Source: an uncultured Stakelama sp. (GTDB taxonomy: Bacteria > Pseudomonadota > Alphaproteobacteria > Sphingomonadales > Sphingomonadaceae). From it: 64,000 bases of DNA. Shown piece by piece: positions 59,701-64,000 of the stretch; positions within the stretch are counted from its first letter, which is position 1, and each line of letters begins with the position of its first letter. Under the pieces are notes generated by a model, which was not told the origin of the DNA, searched no databases, and worked only from the letters and a program-made list of their open reading frames with translations. The stretch spans positions 6,756 to 70,755 of the forward strand of contig CAZXFY010000013.1 of the NCBI GenBank assembly GCA_964639855.1. Reading direction: 5' to 3'. The translations under genes and the position numbers were made by a program.

Positions 59701-61070
59701 CTCTCTGGACCTCTGCCGAGGTTGCCGCCGCAACCGGCGGCACGGCCTCGACGGACTTTGCGGCCGGCGGCGTCACCTTCGATTCGCGCGAGGTGGGGCC
59801 GGGCGATCTCTTCATCGCGCTCGAGGGCGAGACGACCGACGGGCATCGGTTCCTCGATTCGGCGTTCGAGCGGGGAGCAGCGGGTGCGGTGGTGGGCACG
59901 CCGACCCCGCACCCGCATGTGCTGGTCGGCGACACCGCCGCCGCGCTCGACGATCTCGGCCGCGCGGCGCGGGCGCGGACGGGCGCGACGATCATCGGCG
60001 TCACCGGCTCGGTCGGCAAGACCGGAACCAAGGAGGCGCTGTTCGCCGCGCTCGACCGGCCCGAGCCGGGGCAGGCGCACCGATCGGTCAAGAGCTACAA
60101 CAATCATACCGGCGTGCCGCTCTCTCTCGCGCGGATGCCGGCGGAGTGCCGCTTCGGCGTGTTCGAGATGGGGATGAACCATGCCGGCGAGCTTGCGGTG
60201 CTGGCCCGATTGGTGCGGCCGCATATCGCGATCATCACCGCGATCGCGCCCGCGCACACGGCGTTCTTCCCCGACGAATCGGCAATCGCGGACGCCAAGG
60301 GAGAAATCTTTCAGGGTCTGGAGCCCGGTGGCACCGCGATCGTGCCCTATGACAGCCCGCATCGCGATCGGCTGATCGCCGCCGCCAAGCCTCATGCCGG
60401 CCGCATCGTCACGTTCGGGCTCGACCGCGGCGCCGACGTGTATGCGATCGAGACAATGCGCACGCCGACCGGCGGCACCTTCGTCTCGGCGCGGTTGGGC
60501 GAGGAGGAGCTGAGCTACACGCTGTCGCAACCGGGCGCGCATTGGGTGTCGAACAGCCTCGCGGTGCTCGCGGCGGTGCAGGCGGCGGGCGGCGATCTCG
60601 CGATGGCGGGGCTGGCGCTCGCCGAACTGGGCGGGCTGCCGGGGCGCGGCGCGCGGTTCGTGGCGCCGGTCGATGGCGGCGAGGCGCTCGTCATCGACGA
60701 GAGCTACAACGCCAATCCTTCATCGATGCGCGCGACGCTGGCGGTGCTCGCGGCCGAAACCGCGTCGCGCAAGATCGCGGTGCTGGGCGAGATGCGCGAG
60801 CTGGGCGACAAAAGCGACGCGTATCACGCCGATCTCGCCGAGCCGCTGCTGGCTTCGGGCGCCGAGGCGGTGCTGCTCGTCGGCAAAGCGATGGCGCCGC
60901 TTGCGAACGCGCTTGAGGGGCGGATCGATTTCGTTCATGTGCCCGACGCCGCGGCTGCGCGCGACCGGCTGGCGACGATGCTGGCGCCGGGCGACGCGGT
61001 GCTTGTCAAGGGATCGAACGGGGTGGGGCTCGCAAGCGTGGTTGCCGCGCTCGCGGGCAGGAAATCGTAA
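59697..61070 (+). CDS. murF: UDP-MurNAc-pentapeptide synthetase
   Basis: [52 protein letters not shown]. Confidence 0.97.
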
Positions 61071-62140
61071 TGCTGTACCTCATCGCCGAGCATCTGGGCT
61101 TCCCCGGCATCCTCAACCTCATCCGCTATCTGAGCTTCCGTTCGGGCGGGGCGGTGGCGACCGCCTTGTTCATCGGCCTCATCATCGGGCCGAAATTCAT
61201 CGGCTGGCTGCGTGTGCGGCAGGGCAAGGGCCAGCCGATCCGCAGCGACGGGCCGCAATCGCACCTCGCCAAGCGCGGCACGCCGACCATGGGCGGGCTG
61301 ATGATCCTCACCAGCATGACGCTGTCGATCCTGCTGTGGATGGACCTCAAGAATCCCTATGTCTGGGCGTGTTTGTGCGTGACGCTGGGCTTCGGTGCGA
61401 TCGGCTTCCTCGACGATTACGACAAGGTGCGCAAAGCGAGCAGCGCGGGTGTATCGGGCAGGATGCGGCTTTTGGGCGAATTCCTGATCGCCGGCATCGC
61501 GAGCTGGCTGATCGTGCTCCAGAACGGCACCCATCTCTATCTGCCGTTCCTGATGGGCGTGTCGATCGATCTCGGCTGGTTCTACATCGTCTTTGCCGCG
61601 TTCGTGATCGTGTCGTTCGGCAATGCCGTGAACCTGACCGACGGGCTGGACGGGTTGGCGACCATGCCCGTCATCATCGCCTCGGTGACGTTCATGATCA
61701 TCGTCTATCTGGTCGGCAACGTGAAGTTCGCCGGTTATCTCGGCATCCCGCATGTCGCCGGCGCGGGCGAGCTGGCGATCTTCTGCGGCGCGATGGTGGG
61801 GGGCGGGCTCGCCTTCCTGTGGTTCAACGCGCCGCCCGCGGCGGTTTTCATGGGCGATACCGGCAGCCTTGCGCTGGGCGGCGCCCTGGGCGCGATCGCG
61901 GTGACGGCGCATCACGAGATCGTGCTCGCGATCGTCGGCGGGCTGTTCGTCGTCGAGGCGCTCAGCGTCATCATCCAGGTCTTCTTCTTCAAGCGAACCG
62001 GCAAGCGCGTGTTCAAGATGGCGCCGATCCACCACCATTTCGAGCAACTGGGCTGGAGCGAGCCGACCGTGGTGATCCGCTTCTGGATCATCGCGTTGGT
62101 GCTCGCGCTGGCCGGGCTTTCGACGCTGAAATTGCGGTGA
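61070..62140 (+). CDS. mraY: Phospho-N-acetylmuramoyl-pentapeptide transferase
   Basis: [45 protein letters not shown]. Confidence 0.98.
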
Positions 62141-62198: not shown

Positions 62199-63611
62199 AT
62201 GATCACCTGCGACGCCTGGCGCGGCAGACGCTATGCGGTGCTCGGGCTGGCACGCTCGGGCGCGGCGACGGTCCGCGCGCTGCTGACAAGCGGTGCCGAG
62301 GTGACGGCGTGGGATGCGGATGAAGGGCGGCGCTCTCAACTCCTCCCCGGCACGGGGAGGGGGACCGTCGGCGCAGCCGATGGTGGAGGGGGCCCCGCCA
62401 CGAGCGGCACGATTTAGGGGGGGCCCCGCCACCCACCCGCGTCGCGTCTTGGTCCCCCTCCCCGTGCCGGGGAGGAGTTGGTTGTCGCCGATCCCGACGG
62501 GCTCGACCTCGCCGGTTTCGACGCGCTGGTCGTCTCGCCGGGGGTGCCGCTCAACCGGCATCCGCTGGCGGCGAAGGCGCGGGGCGCGGGCGTGCCGATC
62601 ATCGGCGATATCGAGCTGTTCGCCGAGGCGCGGGCCGGGTTGCCGCCGCACAAGGTTGTCGGGATTACGGGCACCAACGGGAAGTCCACCACGACGGCGC
62701 TGATCCATCACATCCTCCAGGCCGCGGGCGTGCCGTCGTTGATGGGCGGCAATATCGGGTTGCCGATTCTGGCGCAGGCGCCGCTGCCGGAAGGCGGCGT
62801 CTATGTGCTGGAGCTGTCGAGTTACCAGATCGACCTGACGGAAAGCCTCGATTGCGACGTCGCGATCCTGCTCAACATCACGCCGGATCACCTCGATCGG
62901 TACGAAGGATTCGAGGGCTATGCCGCGTCGAAGGCGCGGTTGTTCGCGATGCAGTCGGCCGATCACGCCGCCATCGTCGGGATCGGCGATGCCGTATCGG
63001 CGGCGATCGCGCGCGCGCTTTCGGGGCGGGGCGAGCATCTCACCAGGATCGCGCCGGGCGTGTGCCTCGATCAATCGCGCTGGCCCGCATTGCAGGGGCC
63101 GCACAATGCGCAGAACGCGCTCGCGGCGATTGCGGCGTGCGAAGCGCTGGGGATGCCGGCCGAGGCGATCGATCGCGGGCTTGCGAGCTTTGCGGGGCTG
63201 CCGCACCGGATGCAGCGCATCGGCGCGGTGAACGGCGTCGCCTATATCGACGACAGCAAGGCGACCAATCCGGAGTCCGCCGCCCCCGCGCTCGCCGCGT
63301 TCGACCGGATTCACTGGATTCTCGGCGGGCTCGCCAAGTCGGACGATCTCGATGCCTGCGCGCCCTGGTTCGATCGTGTTGCGCGCGCCTATACGATCGG
63401 CGAGGCGGGGCCGCGCTTCGCCGACATTTTGCGGCCGCATATGGCGGTGGACGAAAGCGGCACGCTCGACGTCGCGGTGCGGCGGGCGGCCGAGGTCGCG
63501 ACGCCGGGGGAGACGGTGCTGCTGTCGCCGGCCTGCGCCTCGTTCGACCAGTTCCGCGACTATGAAGCGCGCGGCGACGCATTCCGCATGGCCGTGGAGG
63601 GGTTGGCATGA
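62199..63611 (+). CDS. murD: UDP-MurNAc-L-Ala:D-Glu ligase, interrupted by an in-frame TAG (62415-62417) inside an inserted palindromic element
   Basis: The N part (YAVLGLARSG) and C part (VVSPGVP, ITGTNGKSTT, LELSSYQ, LNITPDHLDR, GLPHR, DDSKATN, LLSPACASFD) are in the same frame, separated by one TAG. Confidence 0.9.
62337..62480. mobile_element. 144-bp palindromic element with perfect 30-bp terminal inverted repeats, inside murD
   Basis: caactcctccccggcacggggagggggacc ... ggtccccctccccgtgccggggaggagttg; the length is a multiple of 3. Confidence 0.9.
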
Positions 63612-64000
63612 CCGACATTCGAGCCGATCATTCGGGATTGTGGAAGCGGATGAGGCCGCGCGCCGGGCGCGGCGACGCGACCCCGCTCGCGCTCTGGTTC
63701 TGGGACATCGATCGTGTGCTGCTGCTGATCGCGCTGTGCCTGATCGCGATCGGGTTGATCGCGGTAGCGGCCGCCTCGCCGGCGAGCGCCGTGCGCTATT
63801 CGGGCGCGCACCATCATATCGCGCCGCTTTATTATTTCTGGCGGCAGCTCGCCTGGGTCGCGATCTCGCTGCCGGTGATGTTCGTGGTGTCGATGCTGCC
63901 CGTCCAGACGGCCAAGCGCCTTGCGCTCGCGGGCACCGTCATCTGCTTCGTGCTGCTCGCGCTGGTGCCGTTCATCGGCGCCGAGACGAACGGCGCGCGG
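63608..64000 (+). CDS. ftsW: Cell division protein FtsW, 3'-truncated by the window edge
   Basis: The ATG overlaps the murD stop; WFWDIDR..L, GLIAVAAASP, RQL.W, GAETNGAR. Confidence 0.93.
   Translation, partial: MTDIRADHSGLWKRMRPRAGRGDATPLALWFWDIDRVLLLIALCLIAIGLIAVAAASPASAVRYSGAHHHIAPLYYFWRQLAWVAISLPVMFVVSMLPVQTAKRLALAGTVICFVLLALVPFIGAETNGAR

Follow-up and report, generated by a model that had tools for sequence, protein, structure and literature searches.

The murD gene in the window analysed here (a stretch of 64,000 nt) carries a palindromic insertion that is real, translated and ordinary across the genus Sphingomonas. An in-frame amber codon interrupts it, and we infer, with a probability of about 0.6, that this stop is a sequencing or assembly artefact at the hairpin. 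According to this reading, a palindromic repeat of ~140 nt would be read through in frame in murD and would lengthen, by ~46 disordered residues, the surface loop that links helix 2 to strand 3 in the MurD N-terminal domain. The TAG at the hairpin tip would be absent from the organism's working gene, having arisen as an error at a very stable GC-rich palindrome, either through one miscalled base (e.g., the G of TAG) or because the centre was assembled the wrong way round within its perfect 30-nt arms. The protein made by the cell would in that case be a normal one-chain MurD of 470 residues. MurD, the UDP-N-acetylmuramoyl-L-alanine:D-glutamate ligase, is an essential cell-wall enzyme. The locus is organised as follows:

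61070 to 62140, forward strand: upstream open reading frame of 356 codons, putatively mraY by synteny (in relatives, a PF00953 gene of 356 aa lies directly 5' of murD)
62199 to 62414, forward strand: N-terminal part of murD, 72 codons by translation, with codons 1-47 the native N domain and codons 48-72 the left repeat half
62337 to 62480, unstranded: nested palindromic repeat element of 144 nt, with the in-frame insert at 62340-62477 (138 nt, 46 codons)
62337 to 62366, unstranded: left arm, 30 nt, with its own small hairpin CCTCCCCGGCACGGGGAGG at 62342-62360; read as LLPGTGRGT
62367 to 62450, unstranded: centre, 84 nt or 28 codons, carrying the TAG as assembled
62388 to 62401 and 62419 to 62432, forward strand: 14-nt direct repeat GGGGGCCCCGCCAC flanking the TAG, 31 nt from start to start
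62415 to 62417, forward strand: in-frame TAG, the sole lesion in murD
62418 to 63611, forward strand: C-terminal part of murD, comprising the right repeat half, the remaining N domain and the Mur ligase middle and C domains
62451 to 62480, unstranded: right arm, 30 nt, with its own small hairpin at 62457-62475; read as GPPPRAGEEL
62471 to 62480, forward strand: SD-like GGAGGAG (62471-62477) abutting TTG 62478, with 2 nt from GGAGG to TTG
63608 to 64000, forward strand: downstream open reading frame, putatively ftsW by synteny (relatives have a PF01098 gene there), overlapping the murD stop and continuing past the window

From the ATG at 62199 to the TGA at 63609-63611 the frame contains one internal stop only, the TAG, and the C-terminal part shares the frame of the N-terminal part. 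A sequence-only reading of this DNA had already described two murD parts in the same frame with the TAG as their sole separator, which translation bears out, and a 144-bp element with perfect 30-bp inverted repeats and the TAG in its loop, which agrees with both arm comparison and RNA folding. It had also pointed to an uninterrupted junction once the 138 bp at 62340-62477 are cut out, to a 14-bp direct repeat at 62388 and 62419 around the stop, and to GGAGGAG directly 5' of TTG 62478. All three are present as described: removal of the insert fuses ...DEGRRSQ to LVVADPDG..., and the spacing called poor in that reading amounts to 2 nt after GGAGG. The two 30-nt arms are 100% complementary, with 84 nt between them, and the predicted RNA fold of the element (-127.9 kcal/mol, versus -84 ± 4 in shuffled sequences; z = -9.9) places the TAG in its apical region. 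The arm motif has a chance expectation of 0 in the window, and the element is not a chance palindrome, since the genome holds ~30 copies of it. Five of its six frames are open, and all frames encode repeat peptide only, without a transposase ORF.

Codons 1-47 form a strand-helix-strand-helix unit, the MurD-type N-terminal nucleotide-binding domain (GLARSG loop, WD motif) is present in the window's N part, and the N-domain invariants established from 41 Sphingomonas MurDs (A13-G21, A23, A27, L28, A33, W38, D39, R45) are all retained. Against relatives, pN/pS is 0.2-0.35 for the C part and 0.3-0.5 for the N part, in which there is no sign of decay. The annotated product of 377 aa (P0001), whose TTG start at 62478 was chosen by the gene caller, contains PF08245 and PF02875, i.e., the Mur ligase middle and C-terminal domains, and E. 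coli MurD structures are matched at E = 1.7e-65 over residues 104-465. The nearest MurD to this product is 80% identical, and the product forms a cluster of one. With exactly one lesion, the gene is what would be expected after a very recent event or from an error.

At this point of MurD, insertions are commonplace in the genus. In ~120 of the 401 Sphingomonas genomes sampled, MurD is encoded by 445-490 codons in one open frame, with a stop-free, in-frame palindromic insert in the same loop. This comparison across the genus leaves the TAG at the insert as a property of the window's genome only, among the matches listed, and the window's murD as the sole case, among the matches listed in the genus genomes, that is not one uninterrupted frame. 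The same family occupies this position, and is in the same frame, in many Sphingomonas MurDs of 460-470 residues from isolates as well as MAGs, and the left-arm peptide, as LPGTGRGT, recurs together with ...GPPPRAGEEL in dozens of homologues. One such homologue reads ..ILPGTGRGTSEAGGGGLATSAPSADAPLHHPADGPPPRAGEEL.., and the window reads LLPGTGRGTVGAADGGGGPATSGTI, then the stop, then GGPRHPPASRLGPPPRAGEEL. Elsewhere the same spot holds other palindromic families (PSPEGEGL type, STSLDTNG type) or no insert. Because its length, frame and orientation vary between species, the centre of the insert is an unconstrained linker; and since the insert is always open and a multiple of three in length, it is, as judged from the reading frames, translated and not removed. 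In an AlphaFold2 model of the read-through sequence, built with 40 homologues, the MurD fold is confident (mean pLDDT 81) and the N domain is modelled with pLDDT ~90. Values below 50 are confined to residues 51-91, which in the N domain separate helix 42-48 from strand 94-96, and the TAG (residue 73) falls in the middle of this stretch. The insert is therefore predicted to be a disordered surface-loop excursion compatible with the MurD fold.

Several further observations concern the history of the element at this site. Its arms are nearly identical in DNA across species (L066-L079) despite ~75% murD identity elsewhere, while the centre diverges freely. This pattern suggests that the hairpin or the arm peptides are under selection, or else that the murD copies have repeatedly been replaced or converted by copies from elsewhere. 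The centre is read in opposite orientations in different MurD homologues (P0003 versus P0004, P0007 and L066) with the arm peptides unchanged, implying either independent insertions both ways or inversion between the arms. At the locus of the closest MurD (L082, protein P0002, 86% nucleotide identity) the full element is absent and a short hairpin-like remnant, GCTCCCGCCCTCGCGGGGGAACG, is read as CSRPRGGT; it is possibly a solo arm kept in frame. In S. koreensis (L080 in genome G188, on a 262,815-nt contig) murD is intact with an in-frame element, ..APSPLQGRGPGRG...PTLSPEGERAFE.., and the public record for that contig lists a 369-aa product only (P0207), whose start was probably placed 3' of the repeat.

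The murD insert belongs to a family of dispersed, nested palindromic repeats of ~140 nt with MITE-, REP- and RPE-like behaviour. The window's genome (3.48 Mb in 98 contigs, 67% GC) holds ~17 full and ~13 partial copies, with 74-83% identity to the murD copy, and most genus genomes hold dozens each. Stop-free copies are translated in frame in other genes of the window's genome:

C29:41493-41631: in the linker of a 2-oxoacid dehydrogenase E2 acyltransferase
C12:71708-71860: in GlyS
C13:4527-4666: in methylmalonyl-CoA mutase, just upstream of the window
C28:18718-18784: in a UvrD-like helicase

Among 18 aligned copies, the flanks have AA...TT-like inverted-repeat extensions, with no clear direct duplication, and no empty site was found at close evolutionary distance. 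At the inner hairpin of the murD copy, TCGGC-GCA-GCCGA, the sequence CGTC (62366-62369) precedes the stem, and the outer arm hairpins are without such a tag; other copies read CGTCCCCGC...GCGGGGATG at this hairpin. Rfam has no family for the element and returned sub-threshold chance matches only (MIR1858, 37.7 bits where the gathering score is 137; blv_FSE, 23.5 where it is 34). The RAYT/Y1 transposase domain PF01797 has no match in the window's genome, and control genomes do match.

Assemblies demonstrably fail at these palindromes. Several contigs of the window's genome terminate at or near element copies, and in one case the same locus was assembled twice: contig C91 ends, and contig C35 begins, with 173 nt from one and the same element copy, and the two versions have ~25 mismatches, mostly A/T to G/C and concentrated towards either contig tip. 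This disagreement points directly to poor base quality at these palindromes in this very assembly. A second kind of failure is seen in the species-representative assemblies of four related species, where the first ~50 murD codons are out of frame with the rest and a single 23-nt hairpin lies at the join:

L058 (G335), L059 (G395), L060 (G177) and L061 (G007): frame-broken murD loci, with the break ~150 nt into the gene

In two of these four assemblies there are N's in the 3-nt hairpin loop. Near-identical intact genes in other assemblies read through a full element as ..PSPLRGEG[RGEGQPSSVASGTAPHPTLSPEG]RGLLEVAPLDDL.. (P0121, 97% identical and in a cluster of 470 members; P0125; P0123, on a 3.96-Mb contig; and also L083). 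In the intact DNA, 23-nt arms lie 76 nt apart, and when one such unit, from arm to arm, is deleted, the result equals the frameshifted assemblies at every base outside the loop. We read the four frame breaks as arm-to-arm collapses. A naturally split murD had initial support in these genomes from the pN/pS of the N part (0.1-0.3, i.e., purifying selection), and was rejected in view of the near-identical intact genes, the 76-nt collapse match and the N's in two loops. The consequences reach the databases: for Sphingomonas sp. Leaf242, one of the four, the public MurD record is a 373-aa protein (P0122) in a cluster of 29 sequences.

For the window's own murD, an artefact is favoured by the state of the gene, in which the insert is still a multiple of three, the N part is in frame with the C part, the invariants are kept and pN/pS stays at 0.3-0.5. 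It is favoured also by the base errors in the same element family within this assembly (C91/C35) and by the collapse of the murD palindrome in the four relatives. The demonstrated errors, however, lie at contig tips, and the murD element lies ~4 kb inside a 73-kb contig. General sloppiness of the assembly as the cause of the TAG was rejected: a genome-wide screen for further mid-gene stops in coding frames found none, and the assembly is not generally poor, since 42 of the 42 candidates look like gene junctions. The same result weighs against an artefact, and it counts in favour of the stop being genuine.

The two routes to an artefact fare differently in detail. The TAG aligns with GCG in the closest relative of the same length (G199), in an AT-rich stretch, GATTTAG. 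A G/C-biased miscall would explain the last base of that stretch only, and TAG and the relatives' GCG differ at two positions. As to misorientation, inverting the centre (62367-62450) turns the TAG into CTA and gives the stop-free reading KTRRGWVAGPPLNRAARGGAPSTIGCAD within an open frame of 470 codons, and the 470-aa homologue P0003 reads the element in just that way. Against this, the centre as assembled matches most relatives, e.g., G199, codon for codon and in length, and with five of six frames open an open inverted frame is to be expected by chance. The same inversion might take place in the cell instead of in the assembler, through recombination or template switching between the arms, so that murD would alternate between an open and a TAG-bearing form and the assembly would have caught the latter. 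In keeping with this idea, the arms are perfect over 30 nt, and species differ in the orientation found in murD (P0003 as against G199). We nevertheless hold it to be very improbable: a spacer of 84 bp leaves very little room for inversion, switching off an essential gene would serve no obvious purpose, and the open inverted frame carries little weight for the reason just given.

If the TAG is present in the organism and fixed, MurD activity would be rescued at expression, either by near-cognate readthrough of UAG-G at a low level or as a two-chain enzyme, a possibility that we regard as unlikely. In the two-chain version, a 72-residue N fragment, made up of the strand-helix-strand-helix unit and a tail, and a 377-residue C fragment starting at TTG 62478, perhaps by termination-reinitiation, would reassemble across the disordered loop. 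The position of the break is well suited to this, as the middle of a disordered, unconstrained loop is the most forgiving cut site; the N part is fully conserved; and GGAGGAG-TTG lies 60 nt 3' of the stop. There is also just one murD to be rescued. The sequence-only reading had allowed for an intact paralogue elsewhere, and a search of the window's genome found no second murD, the other matches being Mur-ligase paralogues of 33-39% identity. Means of rescue are harder to find. There is no tRNA with a CUA anticodon, i.e., no suppressor, among the 44 tRNAs found, and TAG terminates ordinary genes elsewhere in the genome. No in-frame ATG, GTG or TTG occurs between the TAG and TTG 62478, which makes the latter the sole in-frame restart; it lies inside the -128 kcal/mol stem, with an SD-start spacing of 2 nt. 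The absence of a visible rescue route (second murD, CUA tRNA, a TAG used otherwise than as a terminator) in turn favours the artefact. Relatives offer little encouragement to a rescued stop, as none of the ~120 insert-bearing species tolerates a stop, among the matches listed, and the four apparent split murD genes are collapses. Moreover, had the gene been split for long, its insert would be expected to have gathered indels or to have drifted in frame, and it has done neither. The stronger claim, that a mobile palindrome has split an essential single-chain MurD, with the real and fixed amber leaving two chains or inefficient readthrough or reinitiation, strikes us as more doubtful still.

Two other ways round the stop were considered and rejected. 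A hairpin-mediated bypass using the 14-nt direct repeats fails, because 31 is not a multiple of three and a hop from one repeat to the other lands out of frame; the +1 frame in the element region is not the MurD frame. Nor is the element likely to be excised, from either RNA or DNA, given that the other murD-resident copies, in ~120 species, are all kept stop-free and a multiple of three long. Among the options that the sequence-only reading had ranked, sequencing or consensus error, its first choice, is thus the one that the element family and the assembly failures favour; bypass and excision fall away, and readthrough or a two-chain enzyme gained no support (no CUA tRNA; TTG 2 nt after GGAGG).

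The TAG might also be real and yet belong to a non-functional allele, the consensus having taken the broken allele from a mixed template (a population, a metagenome bin or a culture that also holds the intact allele). An estimated contamination of 4.15% and the 98 contigs would suit a bin or a heterogeneous sample, and the element centre evolves fast and freely, so that nonsense variants must arise often. A lethal allele is, however, not expected at majority frequency; the assembly contains no second version of the locus; and a search for same-species DNA in public metagenome and genome contigs found no near-identical sequence. We consider such a mixture distinctly unlikely, and an error at the hairpin stays the preferred explanation of the stop.

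If the stop is an artefact, murD of Sphingomonas provides another case of translated selfish palindromes in housekeeping genes, of the kind known from RPEs and intragenic REPs. It also illustrates how short-read assemblies miscall or collapse such hairpins and so produce false pseudogenes and truncated annotations of the essential murD, of which the 373-aa record of Leaf242 is an example. If, on the other hand, the stop is real, MurD tolerates splitting or recoded expression at this loop, which would bear on protein engineering and on the reshaping of essential genes by mobile DNA. New with respect to the earlier reading are that the insertion is genus-wide and translated, that an inverted centre opens the frame, and that assemblies demonstrably fail at these palindromes.

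Compared with known systems, the murD locus resembles the bypass in phage T4 gene 60 in that its stop codon is part of a hairpin within a coding gap and has repeats on either side. It differs in that the murD repeats are 31 nt apart and out of frame, that it offers no matched take-off and landing codons by which the MurD frame could be regained, and that Sphingomonas relatives translate the element straight through. The element is like a MITE in its perfect 30-nt TIRs, its length (144 nt, thus <300 bp), its multiple copies between and within genes and its lack of a transposase gene, but no clear target-site duplication could be defined from the flanks of the 18 aligned copies. GTAG- and CGTC-tagged REPs (Di Nocera et al. 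2013; PMC3733652) are short GC-rich hairpins that occur within genes, including those of UvrD/Rep helicases, and in inverted pairs, which fold into larger structures; the CGTC type is reported from sphingomonads and reportedly has no transposase of its own (PMC3733652). The Sphingomonas element likewise consists of GC-rich hairpin units, is found within genes, has a copy in a UvrD-like helicase and carries, abutting the inner sub-hairpin, CGTC at 62366-62369 as a candidate tag. Unlike these REPs, it is a nested palindrome of greater length (~140 nt) whose 30-nt termini are defined, and its genome lacks RAYT. Rickettsia palindromic elements (RPEs; Ogata et al. 2000, reviewed in PMC10969869) are dispersed elements of ~100-150 bp that lie in frame in unrelated housekeeping genes; they are translated, and their position in surface loops makes them tolerable to the host proteins. 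The host here is instead a free-living alphaproteobacterium of 67% GC, many families recurrently occupy one MurD loop, and the window's murD copy has a stop, which functional RPE inserts do not. Homology with RPE families is unlikely because the element is ~75% GC; the likeness is one of behaviour, the Sphingomonas element being dispersed, multi-copy, in frame in unrelated genes and accommodated in a disordered loop.
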